64,000 bases of DNA, taken from Eledone cirrhosa. Its lineage: Eukaryota. Within the stretch, counting starts at the first letter, position 1, and every line of letters begins with the position of its first letter. The notes under the pieces are model-generated. The model was not told the DNA's origin and ran no database searches. It saw only the letters and a list, made by a program, of their open reading frames with translations. The stretch is taken from contig OZ024744.1 in the NCBI GenBank assembly GCA_964016885.1, forward strand, positions 84,382,001 through 84,446,000, given 5' to 3'. Shown piece after piece: positions 34-50,561 of the stretch. Made by a program: the position numbers and the translations under genes.

Positions 34-733
34 TCATTTAATCGTGCTATCCAATAATGAAGATATAATAACCGATGCCAACATTCTTTTGCAGGTTATG
101 AACTTAAAAACAGATTTACCAAAGTAAAATAATTCGCCATGTTTCTCAGCACAAGAGAACAGCAGCACTAAAATAAATATATTTCCAGTCTTTTAAACCC
201 TTTCGTGAGAGGAATCCGAGTCGATTATGTATGTTTTAATATTTAAAAGTATAAATATCTAACAACATTAGGTGATATATAAATAAAAGCTGTAATGTTG
301 TTCAATATTTAGAGAAATAGATTCACATTATTTTAAGGCTAAATGCTTATTACTTACCAATATTAATGGTGTCTGAATCAAAATTAAGGGTTCTGCATAT
401 TTGAGGTTTGGGACCATACTTTTTAAAAAGAAAAAATGGTCTATGCTTTCTACGAATAACATGTTCTTTTTTAGGGTAGAATTCCCAAATTTCTATTAGA
501 ACTGGTTCGCCATTCATTTTGATAGGTTCCTGCTGAAAATAATGTGCGTATTATAAAATAGATTTAAATAAGTAGATACTAATAATTGGCAATAAAAAAA
601 AAATGAATGAACTTTCTTCAACATTTCATTTCGTATAAACATTTAGAATATAAAGAAAGAAAATACAAGATAAATACTTAGTATATAATGATAAAAATAA
701 TTAACATTTTAAATATCTTACTTGATGATTCAT
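34..733 (-). CDS. Spliced small protein gene, copy A; join(733-722, 532-358, 167-34), 106 aa MNHQQEPIKMNGEPVLIEIWEFYPKKEHVIRRKHRPFFLFKKYGPKPQICRTLNFDSDTINIVLLFSCAEKHGELFYF...STIK; possible RRM-like fold
   Basis: Canonical splice sites on the minus strand (CAA|gtaaga, ttttcag|CAG, ATTG|gtaagt, attttag|TG). Exon phases are compatible (0 then 1), only one frame is open in the 175-nt exon, and the structure is conserved in the paralog at 22733-23430. Confidence 0.7.
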
Positions 734-830
734 CGTTAGAAATATATGAAGCTCTGGCAGTCACTGGTAAATTAAATCATGAAATAAATATTTAACTTCC
801 ACACTATATATAGTGTTGACGTTGGCTCAC

Positions 831-878
831 TTGAACCGTCTTTTTTCTATTTTGGATGGTTGTATTAACAGTTTACCC
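831..878 (-). other. 48-nt probable 5'UTR exon of gene copy A
   Basis: Acceptor tgttatag| and donor |gtgag; same boundaries at 23528-23575 (-) and 32995-33042 (+). Confidence 0.55.
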
Positions 879-1322: not shown

Positions 1323-1344
1323 ATATACACATATATATATATTA

Positions 1345-1391
1345 TGAACTATTCAGAACCCTTAATTTTGATTCAGACACCAGTAATATTG
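1345..1391 (+). pseudogene. Gene relic D: truncated 3' part of the hypervariable exon (ELFRTLNFDSDTSNI)
   Basis: Matches 33683-33729; its 5' part is replaced by (TA)n. Confidence 0.7.
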
Positions 1392-1574
1392 TAACTGCTT
1401 GTATTTGCATACCCATAGCGAGTGTTTTCGCGTATGCTTGTGTATGTACGTATATGGATGCGTGTACGTATATTTTTAATTTCAATTACCTCTGTATTTT
1501 ATGTACTTTATTTTTAACTCTGAAGCCGAGAATCATTTGGTTTCCTAAATAGCATTTTATTCTACGCCTTCAGT

Positions 1575-2462
1575 TATACAACAGAACCCTCTGTGTTCAG
1601 GGAACGTGAGGCCGCCTGTGAAACGTGGGACAGGGTGGGACTTAGCACGGTAGACGTCCCTCCTCCTTCTCCCCTGTTGACGTCAAATCCCCCCAACCAG
1701 CACCGCCTTGCTTGTTTTCGTGCGGCCTCCAAACCGCACAGTGGTGCCTGGCTCCATGCTCTGCCCTCCTTCTCCACTGGCACGCAGCTAGACAACAGTA
1801 GCCTGCGAATCGGCGTTTCCCTGAGTGTCGGCCTCCGGATCTGCCAGCCACAACAATGTCGCTGCGGTTCCACCGTGGACTCTTTCGGCCTTCACCCTCT
1901 TTGCTGTCGCCACAGTGCCGGCCGCATTCCACGCCATACTGCCCTCAACAAGGTCATTAAGCATGGCTTGGACGCTGCAGGCTTCCCTTGCCAGCTTGCT
2001 ACGGTGGGGCTGGATCGAGGGGACGGCAAAAGGCTAGATAGCATGACCATATTCCCGCGGTGGCAAAACCCTAGTCTGGGATGACACTTGCACCGACACT
2101 TTCTGCAGCCGCAACCTGGTGCAGTCTGCGACTGACCCAGGTTCTGCTGCACGTCGGGCTGAGGGGGCCAAACTCTTCAAATACCGGTCGCTCTCCGACA
2201 GGTTTGCGGTCGTTTCCCTGGCAGTGGAAACTTCTGGTGTCCTAGGCCCCAGGGCTACCTCCTTACTCACCACCATAGGCGCTGAGCTGGCCAGCCGCAG
2301 GTGTGAGCTCCGCGAGTTGGAGTGGCTTTTCCAGCGCGTCTCCATTTCCGTCCTTCGGGGAAACGCCTTCTCCATTCTGTCCGCCGGGGCTGTGAGTGGG
2401 CCCCATAGCGTACCAATACATTAGTTAAATACCATTCTTTCATCTTATACAACACAATAAAG
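1575..2462 (+). mobile_element. CRE-clade non-LTR retrotransposon 3' fragment (CCHC zinc finger plus restriction-like endonuclease), frameshifted
   Basis: Motifs HSGAWLHALP, CRCG..D..G.H.LCC, RH..LN, GKR.D, WD.TCTDT, AVETSGVLGP, QRVSISVLRGN. Confidence 0.85.
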
Positions 2463-5929: not shown

Positions 5930-8900
5930 TAACAACTATCAACAGAAAGTAAAAACTATCAACATGTGTGAGTGTGTGCGTGCGTAAGTTTGCGTGCCGT
6001 GCGCGTTTCCATGCGTGTATGTGTGGGTACGTGTGACATTCCACAATCGCCACGCAGTTAATCTGTCTGTGTGCCTGTCTGTCAGTCTAACATACACAGA
6101 GTTGTGAAGGGAGTAAATAGGGACCTTTCTTTACATTGACTGACATCTTTTATATTTATTATTGTGTCATTTTTTGACAATTGCTCGAAATGAATACTGA
6201 TAATAAAAGCAATTCGACTTTATCAAACAGTGAACTACAGCGGCGACGGTCTGCAGCCCGCAATGAAGAAACGGGCCAAACAGCGCCATCGGAACGCCGA
6301 ACTTCAGAGGCGAAGACGTGCCGCCATGAATGAAGAGGAGCTGACCGAACAACGCCAACGAAACACTGGAGCCAAGCAGCGACGGCGTGCCGCGATGGTT
6401 GAAGACGAACTGGCTGAGCATCATCAGCAGATGGCCAGAATTCAGCAGCAACGGCGTGCTACGTTGGATGAAGTGGAGCTGGCTGAACAGCCCCAGCGCA
6501 ATACAGAAGTTCAGAGAGTGTGTCGCCAAAGTGCTCCTCATTCCAGTAAAGAGGCTAGAAGGCGAACGGATGATATTAAAAATAGATCATGGCAACCGTG
6601 TCATTTTCAGATTGGTGGATGAACAGAGTGTCCACATTGTGGAGCATTGCTTCGGAGGCACGAAAAGACGTGGGCCACAATGTGCTGTCATAAAGGAGCA
6701 GTTTAACTAGAACCCTTGCGAAGGCCGGATGATGAGGAGTCACTGGCGTTTAAAATACTAAGTATGTGGGGTAATCAAGGAGACCGAGGGAGATTATTGC
6801 GCAAATATTTGCGGCAAATTAACAATTCATTAGCTTTAGCATCGTAGAGAGTTAGTAAGATGTTTGAGAGTGGAGCATGGCAGCCGAATGTAGTCATCAT
6901 TCAAGGCCCATTGTATCGTTAATTTAGAAGTTTCCCCAGGAGAGAGGCCTTGATTCGCTTATAGTTAATCGGAGGAGGATATCAGAATCGGTTGGATGAA
7001 GTTGCCGGGAAATATAACTGAACTTGAACCGTGATTTGCAATCATGGCTTACACAGTGTAATCCATATGTTATGGATTTCATGTTGGTTGCTGACCTGCA
7101 AAATGTTCAGCAGCAAACATTGGTGATTAAGGCTGTCACAGTGCCAAGGAATCAACACGAACTGCCATATAATGCCCCTGAAGGATTTCGTGAATTTGCT
7201 GTGTTGATGGACGATAAGCCTGGATGGAAAGATATCGTCCTCGATCGCAGAGATTGTGGTCTCAAGACTATCAATGAGTCAAATAGGGCATACGATCCAT
7301 TGCATTATGTTCTTTTATTCCCAAAAGGTGAAAATGGATAGAACATGTCTGTTTATTTAGATGATCATGAGAATCATCTAAATAATGTATATATATATAC
7401 TCCATATCATATTTCTGGATCAGATGACTATATATACTCCATATCATATTTCTGGATCAGCTGACTATATATCATTATTGATCTGGTTCAGTTGAATATA
7501 ATTCACATATATAAAAAACAGAGCGGTTCATCGGAACTTCAAAGGAATATAAATTAAAATAAGGAGAGTATGTTACATAATATAATGTTCCATATATTGC
7601 TTTTTCACTATGGTGTCTTGGTTGCATCAGTTGTCAGCCATAATCAAGGAGTATTCATCTGTCGAGGCTGCATTGTGAGAGATCTGCCTATGGGTAACAA
7701 GATGGGTGCCAAAGGACATATTTACCTTACTAATTAGAGGGTGGTTTCAGGGGAAGTAACTCATCGAGAGATTAGAAATTGTGGGTAGTTTCGAGTTAAG
7801 TGCTAATTTTTTAAATTGTTAATTGAGAGACAATGTAGGGGAGGTAACTTATAATTATCTAAGTTAGTCATAAATATTTAACTTATTAGCTACAAGTAAA
7901 AATGGGGCTACATGACTAACAGGGAGGTGGCAATAGACACAATAATTCGATTCGAGACTTTTACGCGTTTCATTTGAACGAGAGGGATCAACAGAGAAAT
8001 GCGCTATTTCAAGCCAGCAGATTGTTCCAGGAATACTGTTGTATGGCATTCGCAAAGATCGAAAATCAAAGGTTAAATTATATAGCTACATATCAGCAAC
8101 ATATCCGAGCTGAATTGTATAATAATATACAGGATGCAATAACAGCCGATGATGCCAATTACAAGCAAATTGGTCAACGTATCATTTTGCCATCGTCGTT
8201 CATCGGTGGCCCGAGATATATGAAGATTCGCTATCAGGATGCAATGGCTATTGTCAGAAAGTTTGGAAAGCCAGATTTGTTTATAAGAGTTACATGCAAT
8301 CCTGAATGAACTAATATTAAAGAAGGAATTTTGCCAGGACACCAACCAAAGAACCGTCCTGATATTGTGACAAGAGTATTCAAAGGATATGTGAAAAAGA
8401 TAATGGATGATGTGGAAAAAGAGGGAATCTTTGGAGGTATGGTTCCTTTTACATACGTAATTGATTTCCAAAATAAGAGGATTGCCACATGCACATTTGC
8501 TGATCATTTTACATAGAGATTGCAAATTGAGATGTGCTGGGGATGTCGGCAGCATTGTGTGTGCTGAACTGCCAGAGAGTGAGACACTACGCAACTTGGT
8601 GGCAAAGTCAATGGTTCAAAACCAATGCGGTGTGGCAAATCGGAAAGCGCCTTGCATGAAAAATGGCCAATGCAGTAAGCACTTTCCGAAATCTTTTGTC
8701 ACGAACACTTCCTGGAACGATAGGGATGCTCATCCCTCATACAGAAGACGGTCGCCTGCAGATGGCGGTTTGGTCGAAAATATAAACGGTCGACAGGTTA
8801 CAAATCAATGGGTTGTGCCATACAATCCATATTTGATTATGAAATATCGTTGTCATATTAATGTGGAAATTTGTAGCTCAGTGAAAGCTTGCAAATATCT

Positions 8901-11900
8901 ATTCAAATATGTTTACAAAGGTCATGATCGGGCAATGATCAATGTCAGGAATGAGGAAGCGAGCCAAGGAGATGAAGTTGGCAGGTTCCAGGATGTTCGC
9001 TCGATTGGATCTAGCGTAGCTTGCTGGAGATTGTTCGATTTTGATCTCAATGAACGCAAACCCAGCGTTCAGAAATTGACGGTTCACTTACAGAATAGGC
9101 AAATGCTGTTTTCAGGACACTAGAAGAGGTGTCGAAAGAATTTCTAACGCACCACCTCCTAAGATGGAATTGACTGAGTGGTTCAAGCATAATAGGGAAC
9201 ATGCTTTGAACCCGGATCAAAGGCAACTCTATGGCGATTTCCCTTCGTACTATACGTGGGATAAGAAGGGAAAGAAATGGAATGATAGAAAACAAAAGCT
9301 GAGATTCATGACTATTGTACGGGTTTGTAATGTCCATCCACCATCTGGTGATGTGTTTTATCCCCGAATTCTGTTGCATAATGATTTTTCGCTGATTTGT
9401 AAACAATCAATGGCGTGGAATATGAAACATACCAGGCTGTGTATCAGCATCTGGGAATCATTCAGGATGACGCTGAATGGAATAACGCTATGGAAGCTGC
9501 AGGAACAACACAGATGCCAGCTCAAATAAGGCAGTTGTTTGTCACGATTCTAGGATTCTGCAATCCTACCGATCCAAGAGAGTTATTTGAACGCCATTGG
9601 GGAATTATGGTTGATGATTTTAGGCATCATCTTCAGGTCGATGATAAAAATTTGATGAAAGCTATTGTTTTGCTCAATCTTGAGCAACTGCTTGAAGTTC
9701 ATTTCAAATATTTAACAGATTTCAATTTGCCAATTCCTGATTAAGAAATGCGGCAACGTGTCATAGAATTGAAAATGGGATTGCAGCTTAGACGGTTGCC
9801 ACTCGATCGGAGGGAACTATTCCAGTTTGATCCACTGGAACAGCAACGTATTGTGGGTGAACGTTTGGCACTGTTGACCCAATATCAGAGAGAATTGGTC
9901 GATGGCGTTCTCCACTCGATTTCCACTAATGAGCATCTTTGTGCTTTCATAGATGCTCCAGGAGGCACCGGAAAGACATTCTGTTTCAACACTATCTTAT
10001 CGGCAGTCAGAGCTCAGAGGAAGTTGCTCTCCCTGTGGCGACCAGTGGGATCGCTGCCACTTTGCTGAGTGGTGGAAGGACCTTCCACTCAAGCTTCAAG
10101 GCTCTATTAGCTCCGGATGAGTTGAGTGTCTGTAACATTACAGCACAAAGTAAAATCGTGGGCCTTATACGCAATACGTCTCTGATTATTTGGGACGAGG
10201 CTCCAATGGCACACATATATTTGCTGGAGGCATTGGACATAACTTTGAGAGATATCTGCGGTAGTGACCTGCCATTCGGTAGTAAGACTATCGTTCTTGG
10301 TGGCGATTTCAGACAGGTTCTACCAATTGTTAGGAATGTTCAAAGAGCGCAAATTGTCGATGCATGTCTGAAAAAGTCCCCGTTGTGGCGCCATTTCAGA
10401 GTTTTGCGATTACACGATAATATGCGACTTCGTATGTTCGGGCAAAACGAAGAGGCTGAGACATACGGCCGATGGTTGATGCAGTTGGGAAACGATGAAT
10501 TGCCACACGTTGGTGATAATCAGACTGTAAGAATCCCAGACTATTTGGTCTTGCCACTGGACCGCCAAGCATCGATTGACTGGGTGTTCCCTAATTTGAA
10601 TGCTTTTTGGCAGAATATCTCCTGGATATCGGAACGCGTCTATTCTAACTCATACGAATAGAACGGTCGATGAAATAAATTCACAAGTAGCCGGAATATT
10701 TCCTTGAGAAGACTGGTTGACCGTCAGTGCGGATGCAGTGGAGCCTAATCAGCAGAACAATATGGATGTTCCGACTGAGTATCTGAATTCACTTCAAATA
10801 CCCGGATTCCCCCCCCCCCCCCCCTCCACACATATTTTGATTGAAAAGGGGTATGCCGATTATATTGCTTAGAAATATCAATCATAAAATTGGTCTTTGC
10901 AATGGTACCAGATTGATTGTTGAGAGATTGATTAACGGAAGAGTTTTAGAAGCTAAACACCCAGGCAGAGAAGACTCGGTTCTCATTCCGAGGATTATGC
11001 TGAGACCAAGTGAAGATCTGCTGCCATTTATTTGGCGAAGGAGACAGTTTCCCGTTAATTTGGCCTTCTCCATGTCTGTCAACAAGGCACAGGGATAGAC
11101 TTTCAACCGGGTCGGTGTCTACTTGAATGATCCAGCATTCAGCCATGGGCAACTGTATGTTGCTGCATCTCGAGTGTGCGATCCTGATGGTATAAAATTT
11201 GCAATTGATACCACTAACAGAGGAATAAACCTGAATATTGTCTATAATGAAGCTTTGAGCTGATGTATGCATATCTTTAATGTTATCAATAAGCGACGTA
11301 AATTATTCGGACATTGGTATCCTTCGATCAGTATTGCAAGGTTTGACAGAGTTATCATTTATGTTCAATGTCATTTAATGTCTTTATGAGCAATAAAACA
11401 AACAAGTATTGGTAAAAATTGCTTTGACTGCTATGTTGCGCAATAAATACCAACAAGTATTGTTAGAAATTGACTTCACTGCTATGAATATTCGACATAA
11501 AGGATTCAGACATTGGTGTCCTTTCATCAGTATTGTGAGCTTTGACAGAGTTATCATTTCTGTTCAATGTCATTAATTGTCGATAATGAGCAATAAAAAC
11601 CAACAAGTATTGGTAGAAATTGCCTTCAAATTTATTGCTTCTGATAGCGGTGGTAATAAAACTTCATCATATGCTGAGTCTGGCAAAACGTTTGGTGCAT
11701 ATGGCCGGCAGGGCTAGAGTTTTATTGAAAAACGATTCTGTTTTCGAAGTAGAAGCATCCGCCATTTGGAGCTCAAACCAGCCCACCTCCCCGAGTTGAA
11801 CTCTGGCCAATATTGACTGTCTATTACTCAGTGGCTAAGAGCCTGGAAATTACTGAATAAATTTTTGTGTCATATAATTTGTTGTTTTATTATTATAGCT

Positions 11901-12222
11901 GACCACTTACAGATAAGCATGTTATCCATATCCATATTAATTTGGCATTTGTATAAACTATTTCAAGTAAATAGGGACCTTTTTTACATTGACAGACATC
12001 TTTTATATTAATTATCTATATCTATATCTACATATAATATAAAAGATTGGAATTCCATGATCCTTTTGAGAAAATGACTGTATTGGATATTTGTCTGGTT
12101 ACAGTATGAGGCGAGTCCGTGGTGTCTGTGTGATACAAAAATACAGTACAAAAAATCTTCCAGATATATTAGATTCTTCGTTATCATCTGTTTACCCGGG
12201 CGAAGCGGGGTACATGAGCCAG
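5930..12222 (+). mobile_element. Autonomous-type Helitron (Rep/PIF1 helicase), decayed, copy 1
   Basis: Rep motifs PDLFIRVTCNP, FQ.RGLPHAH, KYLFKYVYKG; helicase motifs DAPGGTGKTF, IIWDEAPM, GGDFRQVLP, LCNGTRL, RRQFPV, FSHGQLYVAASRV; 3' hairpin cccgggcgaagcgggg followed by CCAG; many stops and frameshifts. Confidence 0.95.
7381..7920 (-). mobile_element. PLE 3'UTR fragment inserted in the Helitron Rep region
   Basis: Reverse complement of about 3812-4297; absent from the paralogous Helitron at 46510-46530. Confidence 0.85.
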
Positions 12223-21529: not shown

Positions 21530-21840
21530 GCTTTCGTTAGAGGAATCCGAGTCGATTATGTATGTTTTAATATTTAAAAGTATAAATATCCAATAACATT
21601 AGCTGATAAATAAAGGAAAGCTGAACCACTGTTCAATATTTAGAGAAAAGATTTACGGCTAGAGCAATATTTTCATGGATTATTTTTAGGCTAAATGCTT
21701 TAGTCACGCATCAGACTATTAAAGCTCTTAATATTTACAAATATTACTGGTGTCTGAATCAAAATTAAGGGCTCTGTATAGTCATATTTGGGACCATACT
21801 CTTTAAGATGAAAGCGTCGTCGAGACTTTTTAAGAATCAC
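21530..21840 (-). pseudogene. Gene relic E: frameshifted 3' part of the hypervariable exon (21739-21840) plus downstream intron
   Basis: VILKKSRRRFHLKEYGPK, then a 1-nt loss before RALNFDSDTSNI; intron homologous to 200-350. Confidence 0.7.
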
Positions 21841-22184
21841 ATCTGTGATGGTATTTTCTTGTTTCTCTATGATGCATATGTAGGGTCTGGGAGGGGTAAA
21901 CAGACACTGACGTGCCGACGAGAGAACATCTACGTGGTTTCTCGAAATTCGTGAACTGAGTGAAATGCCATTGAATTGAAACATCGTTGGGAAATATGCT
22001 TGTAATCCTAAACAGTGTATTTGTAGGAAACAATATGGTGTCAATCAATTGGGTTATTCCATTCTATGATGTCGATTGTAATGAATAAATAACACACGAG
22101 TAAAAGCCGTGTCGGACGCACACAATGTTTTTTCCTTAATAATTCGTATACCAGGTAATTCCACTCATTTTATTATTTTAAGGA

Positions 22185-22732: not shown

Positions 22733-23430
22733 TCATTTAATCGTGCTATCCAATAATGGAGATTTAATAACCGATGCCAACATTCTTTTGCAGGTTATGA
22801 ACTTAAAAACAGATTTACCAAAGTAAAAGAATTCGCCATGTTTCTCAGCACAAGAGAACAGCAGCACTAAAAAAAATATATTTCCAGTCTTTTAAACCCT
22901 TTCGTGAGAGGAATCCGAGTCGATTATGTAGGTTTTAATATTTAAAAGTATAAATATCTAACAACATTAGGTGATATATAAATAAAAGCTGAACTGTTGT
23001 TCAATATTTAGAGAAATAGATTCACATATTATTTTAGGGGGAAATGCTTAATACTTACCAATATTACTGGTGTTTGAATCAAAATTAAGGGTTCTGCATA
23101 CTTCAGGTTTTTTACCATACTTTTGAATAAAATATGGTCGAAGCTTTCTACAAATATGATATTCATTTTTAGGGTAGAATTCCCGGACTAGAACTGGTTC
23201 GCATTTATTTTTGACAGGTTCCTGCTGAAAATAATGTGTGTATTATAAAATAGATTTAACTAAGTAGATACTAATCATTGGCAATAAAAAAAAAAAAAAT
23301 GAATGAACTTTCTTCAACATTTCATTTCGTATAAACATTTAGAATATAAAGAAAGAAAATACAAGATAAATACTTAGTATATAATGATAAAAATAATTAA
23401 CCTTTTTAAATAACTTACTTGATGATTCAT
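22733..23430 (-). CDS. Spliced small protein gene, copy B; join(23430-23419, 23224-23059, 22866-22733), 103 aa MNHQQEPVKNKCEPVLVREFYPKNEYHICRKLRPYFIQKYGKKPEVCRTLNFDSNTSNIVLLFSCAEKHGEFFYF...
   Basis: Same splice sites and phases as copy A; indels of 6 and 3 nt preserve the frame. Confidence 0.7.
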
Positions 23431-23633
23431 CGTTAGAAATATATGAAGGTCTGGCAGCCACTGGTATATTAAAACATGAAATAAATATTTAACTTCCACA
23501 CTATATATAGTGTTAACGTTGGCTCACCTGAACAGTCTTTTTTCTATTTTGGATGGTTGTATTAACAGTTTACCCCTATAACACAAAATGGATTAACTTA
23601 ACTGCCAAGTTTTCATGCGCATATAAACACACA

Positions 23634-23931: not shown

Positions 23932-26785
23932 CTAAGGCGGGTAAAATTCCCGAGATCCATGGACGAGTTCTCTCCAGCTGTCTCTGTCCCTCATTATCGC
24001 TGCCATGTCCTGCGTCTCCAACAGACCAGTGTCTGTCCTTAGGGCATCAACATATGTTAACCTTGGTCTTCCTCTTCCAGTGTGTCCATGTAGGGGCTCC
24101 CAAAGGAGCACTGAGTGCAATGTCAACTCTGGATGTCGGTGAGCATGTCCAGCCAACCTCAGTCTCCTCTGTGTCACTTTTGAGCTGACTTTTGGGAGGC
24201 TCCCATACAGCTCTGAGTTTTTCATCCTCAGTGTATACTGATTAATGTTCAGAGCCATCCTCAGCGTTCTCGTGTAGCACCCATCCACCATCTGAGTGAG
24301 TCTCTTGGTCAGTGTCCAAGTCTCAGACCCATACAGCAGCACAGACTCCACTACAGCAATGAAGAGGCGGATTTTCAGGTCTCTACGAAGGTCCGACTTC
24401 CACACCGATCTCAAGCTGTGGCACGCCGCCCAGGCCTTGCTCTTCCTCTCAACCACATCATCTTCCGTATTCCCAATCTTTGCTCCCAAATACAGGAAGT
24501 CCTCAACCAATTCCAGCGGCTTCTCGCCTACATTAGTGATCCCCTCTGGTTTCTCAACATTCTCTACCAGATATTTTGTTTTAGTCTCATTCATTCTCAG
24601 CCCCACACTCATCGACACAGTCTCAACCTCCCGCATCAAATCCTCTGCCTCCTTCACTGTATTTGTCACCAAAACTATGTCGTCGGCAAATTCAGCATCC
24701 GATACCTTTTTCGCCCCAACTCTCCTGCTCTGAGCCGGTGCTACAGTAAAGCCAGAGTCCTGGTGTTTCTCCAGTGCAAGGCGCATACAATAGTCCACTA
24801 CGATGATAAAAAGGTAGGGAGCCAATGTATCTCCCTGGAGCACTCCAGCCAGTATCTCAAAGAACTCTGTCATCCCATCAGGTGTAATGACTTGGGCTTT
24901 GGTGTTGGTGTAGAGCAGTGATATCAGGTCCACTATCCTCTTGGGGATTCCATAAGCCTGTAAGATCTTCATCAGGCAGTAACGGTCCACAGAATCAAAG
25001 GCCTTCCTAAAGTCAATGAAAACCATGACCGCAGGAAGGCACTTTGCTCTAGCTCCCTCTAATATCCTCCTCAGCATCAGGATGTGACTGGTGGTTGATC
25101 TACCCTCTCTGAAGCCGTTCTGGTTGTCCCTGAGCTTCTTCTCCATCTCAGGCTGGATCCTGTTAAGAATCATCCTGTTGAGGGTCTTTGCCACAAGTGA
25201 CGTCAGTGAGATCCCCCGGTAGTTGTTGGTGTTAGAGAGATCTCCCTTCTTTGGCACTGGGACGATGTTACTGATTCTCCACTGATTCGGGGCAACTCCT
25301 TTCTCCAGTGCCCCGTTACAGAACCCCAGGATGATATCATCAAAATCACACCACTTCATCACCTCTGATGCCACTCCATCTTCTCCATGAGCCTTGCCCT
25401 CCTTGATCTTCTTCTTGGCTCTCTGAAGCTCCTCTCTGGTGAAGGGTTCTGTCTCAACATCCAGTTCCTCAAACAGCCGCCTGATCTCCCCAGTGCTCTG
25501 GGCTGTGGAGGGTGGCTCTCCTAGTAGGGTCCTAAAATGGTCTAGCCATTTCCTCTTCCTATCCCCGGGCCCCGTTCCGGTACAGAGCTCTTCCCTCATC
25601 ACCTCCACAGTCTCCATCCTCTCCTCCGTAGGATCAGCATAGAATTGGTCCCTGGCAGCTTTCAGGTGTTCTCTGGCTGCACACACTTTTGGGTCTGCAG
25701 AGCTGACGTGCTTCCCTTTGTTCTTTTTCCTCGGCACCAGGGTTTCACTTGCTTTCGCCACTGCATTGGTGAAGTGCCCGTACCTCCTTGTCACACTCTC
25801 CTCAGTCCATCCAATCTCTCTCTCCTCTGACTCTCCACACAGAGCACTAAACCTGTTTCTCACTTCCACTGTGAACCTCTCCTGTAGCTTATCATCTTCC
25901 TTGAAAAGCTCCCCAGTCATAGATTGTTCTCCGGGGCTGAGCCTTGCTCTTTCTTAAGCTCACGCGGACCTCACTCATAACAAGCCGGTGGTCACTACCC
26001 AGTGTACTGAAATAGCTGTATGGTTCCGTGTTCAGAACACTATTCCGCCACTTTTTTCTCACCAGAATGAAATCAATCTGGGACTTGGACAGGTGCATAT
26101 CTGAGATGTAGGTCCACATCTTCCCCAGATTCTTCCTACACCTTAGGTTGGTCGCCATCAAGTTCGCCTCCAGCAGGGTGTCTCTCAGTAGTCTTCCATT
26201 TCGGTTGGTGTTGTTATGGAAGTACCAGCAAGGATCTTCACTGCCCTCCTTACTCAGATGTGCATTGAAGTCCCCCAAAACAAGCAGGATATTGTGTGCC
26301 TGAGTGGTGTTGACAGCTCTACACACTTCCTCATGGAACTCCTCGGCATTCACATCACTGTCCCCCTCGGTTGGACTATAGGCTGAGATGACTGTCAGTC
26401 TTGGGTTTCCATTGAAGGTCACCCTCAACACTCGCGGGGAGATAGGCATTATTTCCCTCACCAACAGATTGGTTTTTGCACTGAACACAAAGCCCACTCC
26501 TCCTACTGCAGCATTTGTTGTGTTCTTCACTGCCGATGTAGTGATGAGCTGGCTCTTCCTCCCGATCATCACACTCCTCACGGGCTCATCGTGTAGAATC
26601 CTGTGTTCTTGGATCGCAAGTATCTGTATACCACTCTCCTCGAACAGATGTCCCAACTCCTCTCTCTTCTCCAGCGTTCGAATAGTCCTCACATTCAAAG
26701 TGCCCATTTTGATGGCTCTTCTGCAGGACAAAACTGCATTCTTTATATTTGTCTCAGAGACAGCTGATCCATCATCCACTGGCCC

Positions 26786-26787
<2 letters not shown>
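23932..26787 (-). mobile_element. RTE-clade LINE (APE endonuclease plus RT), one frameshift near 25920 and an internal deletion
   Basis: EN motifs GTLNVRT, AIQEHR, SAYSPT, LGDFNA, SQIDFIL, SDH; RT motifs NYRGISL, QNGFR, FIDFRKAFDS, GVLQGDTLAPYLF, EFADD, FLYLG; the stop codon abuts (TA)n. Confidence 0.92.
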
Positions 26788-26881
<94 letters not shown>

Positions 26882-26893
26882 CATATATATGTA

Positions 26894-27032
<139 letters not shown>

Positions 27033-27047
27033 ATATATATATATATA

Positions 27048-27160
<113 letters not shown>

Positions 27161-27161
27161 G

Positions 27162-27227
<66 letters not shown>

Positions 27228-27230
27228 TAT

Positions 27231-27519
<289 letters not shown>

Positions 27520-29122: not shown

Positions 29123-31160
29123 GCTCAAGTATTAATGTAAGGGAGATATATAGAGAGATATAGAGAGAGAAAAAATTTAAAAATAGCCAGACATATTCGA
29201 GGCGTAGAGAACCCTATGTTTTAATGTATTAGTATTTATAAAACTTACACTATATTGTAAATATCAGTATTCCTGAATGAAACAAGTATTCACAATGCGT
29301 GAAAATTCATTATCTTATGTTTAGTTTTTTAAAAAAATTCATATGTCTATGTGAATCCAACTGATTCACTCCGCAAATTCAAAGTTACCGGAAAACATTC
29401 TCAATGTGGTATAAAAATTTGAGCGTATTATTATTCTTGCGATTACTCTACAAGATTATCTATCAAGCAGAAATAGAGAGCAGATTTCAATATACTAATC
29501 GAAAATATATATTATATTATAAGCAGAGATAACAATAATAATGATAATAAGTAAAAATATATAAAAATATATAAAAATATAAAAATATAGAATAGAAAAC
29601 TAAAAAAGAATATTACGAAAGAATATTACATAATAAAAATATTGCATATTAAAAATACTACGTATTAAAAATATTACGTATTAAAACTTTACATATAAAA
29701 ATATACATATAAAAATATAAAAATATTAAAAATAAAAATAAAATAAAATAAAAAATAAAAATATTATAGAATACTACAATACTAAAAGAATAAAAATAAA
29801 AATAAAAATAAAAATAAAAATAAAAATAAAAATAAAAATAAATAAAAATAAAAATGAAAATAAAAATAAACCACAAAGAACAACCCTTCAAAGTTAATTG
29901 ACAATATATTGCCAAGTTCACTACAAGACAAAGCCAAAAATTATCTATCAAATCACATCTAGCAAGGAATATCGCAAAAAAAGATTATGATGTCCAATAA
30001 TGTCTACATATGTTCCTATATTTAATATATAAGTTTATCAAGTGTAAGGTTAATTCAAATGTAAGGTTAATTCAAAAAATTTGGAGCATCGGCTTTTAGG
30101 GTAGCTTAATTTTTCATGAGGAATGTTTAGATAAAAATAAAAATAAAAATAAAAATAAAAATAAAAATAAATAAAATAAAATAAACAATAAAAAGAGTAA
30201 AAAGAGGGAATCAAAGATTTAGGAATCAAAAGATTTATCGGCTAGTTCTCATATAAATATAAATCAAACTAAATATACTACATTTTAAATTTAAATTTAT
30301 ATTTAAACGTTGAGTTTAATCTATGTTTGCAACAACTGAATAAATTTGTCCGTAGGTTAAGGGAATTTTTAGATTTTAATATAAAGAATATCTCCTCTGC
30401 GCAGAGGTCACATGTCTCAGAGGATGAATTAAAAGGAATCCCTCTTGAGACTATATTCCAAGCCGTCGAATATCTAACGTTATCTAGCTTAAGTTGCCAG
30501 AGTACACCTGATAGTGCCGTTGAAGATTTTTTATTTGGATCTGTGAAAGAATTCTTGTGGTTATTATAGCGAAGTTTAAATTCCGTCGATGTGGAACCGA
30601 CGTAGTTAAAAGAATTAGAGTCAGTATTAACATTACAATTGTATACTATATTTTTAACTAAGCAGTTGTTATTTAACGGACATTTAGATCTATCTCTACA
30701 GTTACATTTGTTAACTTGTATATTATTTATGCTATTATCAGTAGGTTTTAAGTTCCTATTATTTATTCTATTAATATTTTGTGCTAAATTTTTGGTGGAT
30801 GAGTAGGTTAATTTAATTGTATGCCTATTGAAGATTGAGTGGTACCTATGTGTTCTAGGGAAGCGATTATCAAGAGCTTTGAAAAATAATTTAGCGATGT
30901 GGGTTTTAATGTTTAGTGAGAAAGGGGGGGCAAACCAAATTATGTTCCTAGTTCTATTTCTTTTTTGTCCTTTGGAATTATTGTAATGCTTTCTATTATA
31001 GTTGTTAATGTTGTTGCCGTCATTAAAAAAGTTGTTACTTTGTTTAGTTTGTTTATCATTATCTATGTACACAATCTTATCAGCATACCCTGCCCTAGCT
31101 AGTGCATCATTATAGTATTGGGCCTTTTCGTCAAAAATCTTTCTATTCGACGAGATATAT
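28612..31160 (-). mobile_element. 5'-truncated Naiad-type Penelope-like element; ORF 31072-30278 (linker, Cys cluster, GIY-YIG) and a long 3'UTR
   Basis: [26 protein letters not shown]...CPL...C, IVY...YVGST..FK.RY.NH, CDLC..E, LN.R...CKH. Confidence 0.85.
28656..28719 (-). ncRNA. Type I hammerhead ribozyme; second copy (CUGAGGA) at 50644-50707
   Basis: ATTTTGT-CTGATGA-[stem II]-GAAA-T(ATAT)A-TA-ATGAAAT. Confidence 0.72.
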
Positions 31161-31166
31161 GTATAT

Positions 31167-31328
<162 letters not shown>

Positions 31329-31456
31329 GTAGGAGGTGAGTTTTATTGTAGTACAATAAAGCAATGCAGATATCGGATAAGAAGCACTCTACAGTTTGTA
31401 GGACTGGAGTATACATAATATATAAGATCAAAAGATGGTTAAAGGAGTTCCATGTA

Positions 31457-32991: not shown

Positions 32992-32994
32992 CAG

Positions 32995-33057
32995 GGGTAA
33001 ACTCTTAATACAACCATCCAAAATAGAAAAAAGACTGTTGGAGTGAGCCAAAATTTA

Positions 33058-33373: not shown

Positions 33374-33729
33374 GAGTAATAATAATAAATTTGAAGACTA
33401 AAATCCAAAGAGGGCTCGATAAGGATAAGCAGCGATTCTTTGCTTAAACTTTAATCTGTTATTTTAATAAATATATATATATATATATAAATATATACAT
33501 ATATATATATACACATATATATATACACATATATATATATATTATTTTCAGCAGGAACCTGTCAAAATTAATGGCGAACCAGTTCTATTAGTAATTTGTG
33601 AATCCTACCATAAAAAAGAACATCATGTGATTCGTAAAAAGGCTCGACCATTCTTTCATTTTAAAGAGTATGGTCCCAAGCCTGAACTATTCAGAACCCT
33701 TAATTTTGATTCAGACACCAGTAATATTG
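32995..33729 (+). pseudogene. Gene copy C: UTR exon 32995-33042 and hypervariable exon 33552-33729 (open frame); ATG exon lost
   Basis: QEPVKINGEPVLLVICESYHKKEHHVIRKKARPFFHFKEYGPKPELFRTLNFDSDTSNI; the intervening intron is replaced by (TA)n and two small elements. Confidence 0.72.
33118..33300. mobile_element. Fold-back element: ~55-nt tail plus ~50-bp inverted repeat
   Basis: tatacttggggagggtcatatttgtgtaatattgccagaatta / taattctggcaatattacacaaatatgaccctcgccaagtata. Confidence 0.7.
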
Positions 33730-33912
33730 TAACTGCTTGTATTTGCATACCCATAGCGAGTGTTTTCGCGTATGCTTGTGTATGTACGTATATGGATGAG
33801 TGTACGTATATTTTTAATTTCAATTACCTCTGTATTTTATTTACTTTATTTTTAACTCTGAAGCCGAGAATCATTTGGTTTCCTAAATAGCATTTTATTC
33901 TACGCCTTCAGT

Positions 33913-34803
33913 TATACAACGGAACCATCTATGTTCAGGGAACGTGAGGCCGCCTGTGAAACGTGGGACAGGGTGGGACTTAGCCCGGTAGACGTCCCTC
34001 CTCCTTCTCCCCTGTTGACGTCAAGTCCCTCCCCCCAACCAGCACCGCCTTGCTTGTTTTCGTGCGGCCTCCAAACCGCACAGTGGTGTCTGGCTCCATG
34101 CTCTGCCCTCCTTCTCCACTGGCACGCAGCTAGACAACCATAGCCTGCGAATCGGCGTTTCCCTGAGGCTCGGCCTCCGGATCTGCCAGCCACAACAATG
34201 TCGCTGCGGTTCCACCGTGGACTCTTTCGGCCTTCACCCTCTTTGCTGTCGCCACAGTGCCGGCCGCATTCCACGCCATACTAACCTCAACGAGGTCGTT
34301 AAGCATGGCTTGGACGCTGCAGGCTTCCCTTGCCAGCTCGCTCCGGTGGGGCTGGATCGAGGGGACGGCAAAAGGCTAGATAGCATGACCATATTCCCGC
34401 GGTGGCAAACCCCTCGTCTGGGCTGCCACTTGCACCGACACTTTCTGCAGCCGCAACCTGGTGCAATCTGCGACTGACCCAGGTTCTGCTGCACGTCGGG
34501 CTGAGGGGGCCAAACTCTTCAAATACCGGCCGCTCTCCGACAGGTTTGCGGTCGTTCCCCTGGCAGTGGAGACTTCTGGTGTCCTCGGCCCCGGGGCTAC
34601 CTCCTACTCACCACCATAGGCGCTGAGCTGGCCAGCTGCAGGTGATAGCCCCGCGAGTTGGAGTGGCTTTTCCAGCGCGTCTCTATTGCCGTCCTGCGGG
34701 GAAACGCCTTCTCCATTCTGTCCGCCGGAGCTGTGAGTGGGCCCCATAGCGTACCAATACATTAGTTAAATACCATTCTTTCATCTTATACAACACAATA
34801 AAG
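33913..34803 (+). mobile_element. CRE-clade 3' fragment (duplicate of 1575-2462)
   Basis: Near identity to 1575-2462. Confidence 0.85.
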
Positions 34804-35244
34804 ATTTTATAGAATATTCATAAATTGTTATACCATTTACGTGTAATTGTTCTCGTTACTCCACATAATGTAGTATTATCTTCGTTTTTTCCGTTCATTG
34901 CCAGAGAACGTCTCCATGAACCATCTAATAGAATATTAGTCTACGACTTCATTTATACCATAAACGTGGTTTTATCTTTGCGTGTAATTGTTTTTCACCG
35001 ATCCAAATAATGACGTATTATATTCGTTTTTTTTTTTTTTTTTGTTCTTTGCCAGGGAACGTTTCCACGAACCAAAGTATCGTCTTCCTGTCTTCCTTTG
35101 GTTGCAACTTTTTTTGAAATATTTAATTCTGCGTTCACAGATTGAGTTTATTAGTTTCAGAAGATCCCGTTAAGGGTCAAAGCAGCGATTCTTTGCTTAA
35201 ACTTTAATAAAATATATATATATAAATATGTATATATATATATA

Positions 35245-38200
35245 TTTTTTTTCTTATTCGTTCACTCCACCCCGCTTCACACCCCCGCCCTCTCATCCCT
35301 CCCCCTGCTTTCACCCAACGCCCATCATGGCCAACCTGAGATCCTTTCTCCACCAACTCCACAATCGCCTCAAACTTTTCCTCACCACCCTCCTTCCACC
35401 CTGCTATCTCCCCTCCGCCCTTCAACTCTCCTACCTTCTCTTCGCCAAAACCCGGCACTCCAGCCACATCCATTTCCTCAGCCACTGCCTCCGCCTCCAC
35501 CTTATCCCCCTTGGCTTCCGTCTACACTTCCACCCCTCCCCCGCTGCCTCCCCCTCCGCGCAACGTATCCTCACCCGATCCTCACGCCTTCTGATGCGCA
35601 ACTCCATCCGCGCCTCCCGTTCCACCCTCCGCCTACTTGACCACCAACTGACCCCCACCCTCCTCCGCCTTTACTCCACCTGCCACCCCCTCATCGCCCA
35701 AGCCATCCTCTCCTTCATCCACAACCTCAACCACAACCTCTTCTCGTTCCTCAGCTCCACCAAAGCCCGCAAGCTACACTCACTCCCCCCCCCCCATCCA
35801 CCACCACCCGCCCATCCCCATACGCTCACCACTCCCCCTACCCCACCCCCACCCAATCTCCACCCCTCACCACACCCTCCCTTCCCTCCCCCAACACCCA
35901 AACCCCACCCCTTGTTGTCACCATAACCCCTGACCTCCCCCTCTCCGCACCTGAGCGCTCACTCCTTAGTAGAGGCCTTCGCTTCATAACTCACACTCCG
36001 CTCAGCGACGAGTTCCGCACCCGAACGGAAGTCGAGCGATTCGTGCGACGCACTAAGCTACAGGCACATTTCAGCCGAACGCCACCGGCTCCGGACGCCC
36101 CAGACCCGTTTCTCGCCCTGGGCCGACGACCATCTTCTTGGACGCCGGCCCCAGGGCAATTTAGCACCCTGGACGCCTTCGTCGATGCCAGCCGTAGCGC
36201 AGTAAATCGTTTCGACTTCCGCCACCGTTCCAAACGGCACAACATCTCACGGGGCGAACTCCTCGCTCTCCGCTCCCTCCGTAGCCGAGATGACATCGTC
36301 ATCAAACCGGCGGACAAGGGAGGCGCCGTGGTGGTATGGCGCGCGGACCTCTACACGGCCGAAGCCCTCAGGCAGCTCTGTGACCCCCTCTTTTACCGCC
36401 CTCTACCCTCCGATCCCACCCCCCTCTACCAACAACAAGTCTCCTCCACCATCAAAGACCTTATCGCCTCCTCCCTCCTCCCCCCCACCGCTTCCCACCT
36501 CATCGTCCGCACACCCCGCACCCCCACCATCTACTTCCTCCCCAAACTCCACAAACCCGACAACCCCGGCCGCCCCATCGTCTCCGCTTGCAACTGCCCC
36601 ACCGAACTCATCTCCGCCTTTCTCGACTCCCTCCTCGCCCCCCTTGTCACCACCCTCCCCTCCCACATCTCTGACACCAACCACGCCCTGCGCCTTTTCG
36701 ACTCCTTCACCTACCTACCCGGCCCTCAGCCATTCCTCTTCACCCTAGACATCAAGTCCCTCTATACCGTCATCCCCCCACGCCGACGGCCTTCGCGCCC
36801 TCAAACACTACCTCGACCATCGCCCCTCCCCCATTCCCTCCACCCCCACCCTCCTTCGCCTCGCCGAGCTGGTCCTCACCCTAAATTGTTTCTCCTTCTC
36901 GGGTGAGTTTTACCAACAGGTCACGGGGGTAGCCATGGGCACAAGAATGGGCCCGAACTATGCCAACCTTTTTGTTGGCCATGTTGAGGCCCAAATCTTT
37001 GCCCAGTACACCGGCCCCACGCCCGAACTGTACGGTCGTTACATTGACGACTGTATCGGAGCCACGACCCTCACCCGAGTACAGCTCGACTCCTTTCTCT
37101 CCTTCTTCTGCTCCTTCCACCCCTCCCTCCACTTCACCACCTCTATCTCCACCACCCACGTCCACTTCTTGGACATCTCCGTCGCCTTCGACCCCTCCCA
37201 CCACTCCCTCGTCACCTCCGCCTTCTTCAAACCCACCGACTCCCACTCTTACTCGACTTCACCTCTTCCCACCCCACCCACACTAAACTCTCCATTCCCT
37301 ACTCCCAACTTCTCAGGATCCGCCGCCTCTGTAGCCGAGATGCTGACTTTGAGTCCGAGGCCCTTTCCCTAGTCAGCCATTTCATCCGCAGAGGTTTCCC
37401 CCCTCTCTCGTCCACACCGCTCTCACCCGCGCCCGTGCTATCCCCCGCTCCACCACCCTCACCCCACGCCACCGCACACCCACCCACCGTCTCCCCTTCG
37501 CCATCACCTACCACCCCTCCACCTTACCCCTCCACCGCACCATCCGCCGCCTCTTCCGACACCTCCAGTCCGACCCCTCCACCTCCCACATCTTCCCAAC
37601 CCCACCACTCCCCTCCTTCAAACGCGCACGCAATCTCCGCACCCTCCTCGTCCACAGCTCCCTACCCCCCAACCCACGCTCCGTTTCCCCCCCCCCGGTT
37701 CCTTCCCCTGTTCTAGGCCCCGCTGCAACACCTGTCCCCACATCACCAACACCACCACCTTCCAGGGTCCCAACGGCCACCCTCTCTCGGTCCGGCATGC
37801 CTTCCGCTGCACCTCCTCCAACCTAGTCTACGGACTTCGTTGCACGAGGTGCAGCGCGACTTATGTCGGACAGACGGGACGCCGCCTGGCGGACCGAGTC
37901 ACGGAGCACCTCCGGGACATTCATCTCGGGGGCAGTTCCCCCATCGCCCGCCACTTTGGTGGCCCTGGACACTCCGCACGCCATCTCACAGTCTGTGGCC
38001 TACTCCAGTGCCACGGAACACCCGCCCATCGCCTTACGGTCGAACAACGTACTATCTTCATCTTACAGACCCACACTCCCCCCGGCCTGAACTCCCCACC
38101 CTTATTCCTTTAGCGTTCGACCGCTTCCCTCCCCCCACTTATCCCCCACTAACACCACTAACACACCCCTCCTTTTCACCGCCCACCCCACACTAACAAT

Positions 38201-44674: not shown

Positions 44675-50561
<5,887 letters not shown>

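Follow-up and report, generated by a model that had tools for sequence, protein, structure and literature searches.

In venom genes, the exon evolves faster than the intron. The multigene families of conotoxin type, as far as they are portrayed in one account (PMC10561478), consist of small three-exon genes that lie amid transposons in multiple copies and carry a hypervariable coding part. The family analyzed here, found in a window of 64,000 nucleotides (the whole stretch of Eledone cirrhosa DNA under analysis), resembles them in these features; unlike them, it carries no signal peptide, no pro-region, no fixed cysteine frame and no sequence likeness to them, and it is known from the genome alone. 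A second parallel is offered by the RHCE and RHD genes, for which an island-of-divergence model of gene conversion has been described (the Innan model, as outlined in PMC3966226): divergence peaks at one exon, the flanks are similar and the copies exchange sequence, as at the present locus, but the excess of copy B described below is solely non-synonymous. Clusters of orphan genes comparable to this one are also found among the taxon-restricted arrays of coleoid cephalopods (reflectins, suckerins and unnamed arrays, as summarized in PMC9068888); a comparison with the named families showed no likeness.

The reading that we prefer, with a probability of about 0.5, is that the locus belongs to a young, chromosome-restricted orphan family, which would encode a small intracellular protein, evolve by birth and death, and have passed through an adaptive burst in copy B.

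Copies of the family and the predicted gene model

DNA and protein searches of the 3.0-Gb genome identified at least 15 copies or fragments, all of them on a single contig (C28) between 28.5 and 90.7 Mb, and the multicopy family supposed by the sequence-only reading is thus real. Nine copies are of A-type (A, A2, B, B2, C, C2, D, E and F) and six, at about 70-75% identity, are of G-type (G, H, I, J, K and M). The 5′ border of every copy lies at the same TA-array boundary, with no upstream DNA in common, and the 3′ borders are ragged. Copies A2, B2 and C2 together with A, B and C form a tandem array in which A-type and B-type units alternate, about 20-40 kb each; the segment G000:C28:84322000-84433000 is a gap-free run of such units in the order A2, B2, A, B. 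Because there is no gap and the B unit contains about 9 kb of extra inserts, we favor A2 and B2 as true duplicates rather than stacked haplotypes.

The minus-strand gene model of copies A and B (Table 1) was verified base by base, and the two copies do have start, splice sites, intron phases (0 and 1) and stop in common, as stated in the sequence-only reading. The span 34-878 assigned to copy A does contain the gene, but position 878 is merely an AG-like boundary without ATG, and the common start is at 733; a candidate upstream exon at 878-831 found no support, since it lacks an ATG and part of it is missing from copy E. The ATG at the start-exon position is present in A, A2, B, B2, E, G, I, J and K, and lost in D, F, H and M. 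Splicing at the two GT-AG introns is predicted, as is transcription from the TATA-like site within a palindrome of which the spacing is identical in A, B and the G-type copies. Since TATATATA is abundant in the window (1304 sites), the palindrome is weak evidence, and the candidate transcription start of copy A, which would lie near 780, is weakly indicated by the TATA-like site.

Complete predicted frames were found in 4 of the 15 copies (106, 106, 103 and 104 aa), the predicted product being small and basic (pI about 9.5) with a middle rich in Lys/Arg and aromatic residues. As judged against the A/B model, 11 of the 15 copies are truncated or broken. Copy D has lost the first ATG and is otherwise open, its last exon being restored by deletions of 25 and 2 nt; copy E has a stop in the last exon; and copies C and C2 consist of the exon only. 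In five of the G-type copies, the frame stays open over 68-69 codons before a stop, and M is broken. The exon of copy C, cited by the sequence-only reading as a further divergent and open member, does stay open, but this copy is a fragment, in which TA arrays replace the start exon and a high-copy repeat starts exactly at the donor. The same repeat continues over 33730-35211 at the end of the C exon, and its fragments also trail the tail copies; its summed contig depth reaches up to about 10^5, as compared with 10-60 over the gene.

Several smaller observations were made on the copies. In copy F, a 965-nt insertion is located at a TA in the middle of the main exon (L008:1900-2870), almost where the tail copy of A ends. 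The tail itself (window 21700-21900, minus strand, with matching tails of D, E and F) has its own AG acceptor and donor, with about 50 codons open in E and F; it could represent either an additional exon or the outcome of a rearrangement. Another AG-bounded stretch (L001, G000:C28:84381860-84381911, minus strand), 120 nt past the stop of A and present in both classes, is open for about 17 codons and is a possible further exon. For the G-type copies (L017:1690-2170, L016, L018), a five-exon model with introns of 85-114 nt is possible, the last acceptor being intact in H alone; the last codons of its frame are two cysteines followed by a stop, which we take to be a prenylation-like ending.

Table 1. 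Positions (numbered along the window) of predicted gene parts and related segments
Feature	Position	Strand	Details
Candidate promoter palindrome, copy A	802..815	-	14 bp, with TATA-box-like octamer; 32 nt upstream of TCA
Candidate promoter palindrome, copy B	23499-23512	-	same palindrome
Predicted start codon and three further codons preceding donor 1, copy A	722..733	-	ATG 733-731
Predicted intron 1, copy A	533..721	-	189 nt, GT-AG, phase 0; donor GTAAGA 721, acceptor 533
Main, hypervariable exon, copy A	358..532	-	175 nt = 58 codons + 1 nt
Predicted intron 2, copy A	168..357	-	190 nt, GT-AG, phase 1; donor GTAAGT 357, acceptor 168
Predicted last coding exon, copy A	34..167	-	TGA 36-34
Predicted start codon and exon end at donor 1, copy B	23419..23430	-	ATG at 23430
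Predicted intron 1, copy B	donor 23418, acceptor 23225	-	194 nt, phase 0
Main exon, copy B	23059..23224	-	166 nt; carries replacement burst and in-frame deletions
Predicted intron 2, copy B	donor 23058, acceptor 22867	-	192 nt, phase 1
Predicted last coding exon, copy B	22733..22866	-	TGA-ended
Copy C, open main exon only	33552..33729	+	start exon missing; repeat begins at donor; 5′ remnant 32993-33051
C′, 3′ end of C-type exon	1343..1391	+	head to head with A
Tail, partial duplicate of 3′ half of main exon and intron 2	21531..21842	-	frame-shifted; about 900 nt past stop of B
High-copy repeat inserted at exon end of C′	1392..2400	+

Divergence of the main exon and its reading frame

Between copies A and B, the main exon differs at 25 of 166 nt and, under plain alignment, at 19 of 55 residues, with one synonymous change among the conserved residues and with in-frame indels of 6 and 3 nt, all in agreement with the counts of the sequence-only reading; a codon alignment including other copies gives 22 nt and, at the codon level, 17 of 54. 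Over the remainder of the 1.8-kb unit, 52 of 1622 nt differ, and the excess in the exon is highly significant (p=4.8e-9). The introns are slow, as claimed, with 5 differences in 189 nt upstream and 8 in 190 nt downstream. The three changes in the last exon are indeed all non-synonymous, but 3 of 134 nt is the neutral rate and therefore uninformative. Along the 12.9 kb over which the A unit and the B unit were aligned (1.6-5.5% mismatch), 134 segments of 166 nt were scored and two non-orthologous ones set aside; the segment with the main exon is the most diverged of the 132 orthologous segments, with 24 differences against a median of 5 and a highest non-exon value of 17. The exon is more diverged than the neutral DNA of the same duplication: the introns evolve at a neutral pace, and the main exon is truly fast.

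The main exon is probably coding, as judged from its reading frame. It is open in 8 of the 9 A-type copies, and both pieces in F are open. In a neutral simulation on the exon tree, six tips without any stop were obtained in 1.2% of 3000 runs (P=0.012), and each of the 4 gap runs within the exon has a length divisible by three (about 0.007), a property of 16 of the 56 gap runs that lie elsewhere than in the two coding exons. Openness and in-frame gaps point to a frame maintained by selection with a joint probability of about 1e-4, a value that is too favorable, since openness was what led to the choice of this region. A control in all six frames covered 2194 stretches of 40 codons each, of which 134 were open in A; 24 of these remained open, without a shift of frame, in B, D and E too, and all 24 fall in the main exon and in its frame. 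The indel between A-type and G-type copies is 39 nt long and in frame, and across the classes the main-exon frame contains 0 stops, as compared with 5-13 in the other two frames.

Two comparisons between the classes speak against the coding reading: conservation of the splice sites is no higher than that of the 3′ flank and the intron interiors, and a weak synonymous bias (p 0.02-0.03 among about 60 tests) is seen in the start exon in a frame other than that of the ATG. In the last exon, 6 of 11 and 6 of 14 single changes between the classes are synonymous, which is only suggestive of purifying selection; within the A class, amino-acid-level purifying selection was seen in neither exon. Contigs of one sample of unrecorded kind cross the predicted introns (299-710, for instance, is covered with 0 differences), and exons resembling those of B, C and D are present on them; they behave as DNA and provide no evidence on expression.

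Selection, gene conversion and competing explanations

The claim of positive selection on the exon is supported in part: the exon excess is confirmed, the burst on the branch of B is likely due to selection, and the tests across the family are not significant. With eight sequences (A2 omitted as identical to A), omega above 1 across the paralogs, which the sequence-only reading had named as its own test, was not established, the M0 estimate of 1.41-1.56 being not different from 1 (p 0.15-0.27), and the comparison of site models M1a and M2a was not significant (p 0.25-0.38). Within A/B/D, omega is about 3 (p=0.04-0.05), with non-synonymous divergence of 0.12-0.18 and pS of 0.04-0.07, as compared with 0.03-0.08 in the flanks. 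On the B/B2 branch, 15 of 166 exon sites changed versus 9 of 1441 elsewhere, in 13 codons with 0 synonymous changes; the omega of this branch, singled out after seeing the data, gives p=0.009-0.010. The branches of A and D are not significantly fast (p 0.11 and 0.59, respectively), and B and B2 differ from each other by 0 replacements with 2.6 expected. Multi-base mutations are known, as stated in 10.1101/165969, to mimic selection, and two of the changed codons on the B branch are multi-base events. After neighboring changes were merged, the rate excess of the B branch remained (10 vs 9 events, p=4e-6), and the synonymous deficit was weakened (P(0 synonymous)=0.07-0.11). When the classes are compared, conservation over the gene body is lowest in the exon middle (30-40% of columns invariant vs 55-95% for introns and far 3′ flank); among the G-type copies themselves the exon is not fast and evolves at the flank rate.

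The excess has two sources, the burst on the B branch and a conversion-like older divergence towards E and F. Between A/B/D and E/F, pS is 0.14-0.23 and pN 0.17-0.28, both about double the flank rate of 0.08-0.10; the synonymous sites being raised too, this points to gene conversion, and the extra divergence is better read as conversion among older copies than as selection. The split of E+F from the others is backed by 10 of the 16 informative exon sites, and these sites lie in clusters and in part conflict with one another (p 0.037 and 0.012, the latter by a PHI-like test). A simple conversion of the exon from an older paralog, by which the sequence-only reading would have been refuted, has some force for A/B/D versus E/F, but less for B: pS within A/B/D is at the flank rate, and no older donor of the B exon was found in the assembly, the nearest other copy having 81% identity.

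Under the preferred reading of an orphan family with an adaptive burst, a tandem duplication would have been followed by the change of the 13 codons in the B main exon, all of them non-synonymous, the likely cause being positive selection that acted briefly on a binding surface; the copies do exchange sequence as a mosaic, and the frame is kept through in-frame indels. We suggest, quite tentatively, that the protein is intracellular and that its Lys/Arg- and aromatic-rich middle serves as a variable contact surface in a genetic conflict, be it with transposons, viruses or germline drive. If expressed, the locus would represent an orphan family that is absent from the annotation and escapes both ORF tracks and searches for homology. 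With its burst of change mapped precisely to one exon after a tandem duplication, it would then be a compact test case for neofunctionalization under gene conversion, possibly with conversion of intron to exon. Birth and death, a fast exon and conversion together form a well-known pattern, and the probable orphan multicopy gene is ordinary in kind.

A possible but doubtful alternative is that the copies are decaying, non-expressed or relaxed duplicates in which the exon middle is a hotspot of breakage or mutation, with clustered multi-base changes and templated repair, the open frame being part luck and part picking. This would account for a family-wide omega indistinguishable from 1, for the clustering of the changes in B, for the flank rate of the G-type main exons, and for the number of independent breaks in or at the exon, that is, the 39-nt indel, the insertion that interrupts F, the junction of the tail, the point at which the tail of A ends, the start of C′ and the repeat at the donor of C. 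Against it stand the avoidance of stops (0.012) and the in-frame state of all four indels (about 0.007), together with the survival of the main-exon frame alone in four copies; furthermore, a hotspot is expected to lift the synonymous sites, but the pS among A/B/D is only 0.04-0.07.

We regard it as unlikely that the gene is real with an exon older than its flanks, either converted in from a lost or unassembled diverged copy, or escaping while the flanks were homogenized around it. Such a history fits the elevation of both pS and pN above the flank between A/B/D and E/F, the E+F split and the PHI-like result, but for B it lacks a donor in the assembly, and the exon tree groups B with A and D; the B branch of 0.105 should hold about 3-4 synonymous changes and has none, and the neutral DNA of the two units differs by just 1.6-5.5%.

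A-type copies lack the internal donor of the G-type copies through the 39-nt in-frame indel. With similarly low probability, the hypervariable middle could be a former intron: a 39-nt deletion would have taken the donor in the A-type ancestor, and the remnant would have become coding in frame and been remodeled by selection, most strongly in B. If this were true, an orphan conflict gene would build its variable surface from intron sequence. Still less probable is that the copies stem from a longer ancestral gene, of which internal exons were duplicated and the 5′ part was left behind; the true structure would then have more and smaller exons, as suggested by the G-type copies, and the variable middle would be a retained or still spliced intron. 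In favor of this, G, H and I contain in the middle of the exon a 97-nt GT-AG segment, without which the end of the exon returns to the A-type frame, a GT-AG segment of 85 nt is present in the last exon of H, all copies start at the one TA-array boundary without common upstream DNA, and the start exon shows its conflict of frames. Against it, the A-type copies have no internal donor and keep the frame open through the middle, DNA and protein searches of the genome yielded no parent gene, and only transposons and TA arrays are present between B and C.

Searches for related proteins and the surrounding elements

Returning to the preferred reading of an orphan family, word-based searches with the main exon, the last-exon alignment and both classes detected no homologues among database proteins of 30-2000 aa (103-2000 aa for the main exon, 77-2000 aa for the last exon and 30-119 aa for both classes). 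In Pfam, three families gave E values of 0.055-0.16, below the cut-off; the best match among PDB sequences had E 0.029 over 21 residues; and the ESM Atlas yielded no usable match. The AlphaFold model of the main exon, with a pLDDT of 49.9 and no Foldseek match at E<=0.001, is uninformative. The single match in a profile search of 1.84 billion representatives (P0003) was rejected as a repeat protein, of which the score sums at least 10 copies of a short motif, and a genome match on C9 was rejected as a TA-repeat artefact. No paper on this family was found in searches of the literature, where the family sequence itself is not searchable.

A toxin or gamete-recognition role, mentioned in the sequence-only reading, is unsupported, with no signal peptide, transmembrane stretch or cysteine frame, although in its mode of evolution the family bears some resemblance to conotoxin-like and surface recognition families. 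The best 19-residue hydropathy is 0.9-1.4, located in the C-terminal third, and the N-terminus is polar, as judged from hydropathy only. No Cys is invariant in the main exon, and there are 3 Cys in A and 5 in B. A presumed likeness to the strands of small GTPases was rejected, as was an assignment as a fragment of a Ras-type small GTPase, since no copy was among the 116 matches to PF00071 and the scores on the Ras profile were no better than those of shuffled sequences (25-200 of 200). A role as host of snoRNA or miRNA was likewise rejected, the 39 sub-threshold Rfam matches, at 3 loci, all lying in or beside TA arrays outside the gene.

The window consists mostly of transposon remnants and TA arrays, and only these are found between B and C, which are arranged head to head. 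A putative SINE likeness would fit an octopod host. The segments 6089-12182 and 45209-50404, which we take to be decayed Helitron-like Rep/helicase remnants, are present one per duplicated unit and are 2-5.5% apart. At 23932-27370 (minus strand), between B and C, lies what is presumably an RTE-like LINE with a reverse-transcriptase frame of 673 aa, both interrupted and flanked by TA arrays. Two further segments, 30278-31342 (minus strand) and 35201-38113 (plus strand), appear to us to be Penelope-like remnants of reverse transcriptase/GIY-YIG, and the latter is located in a strongly C-skewed stretch.
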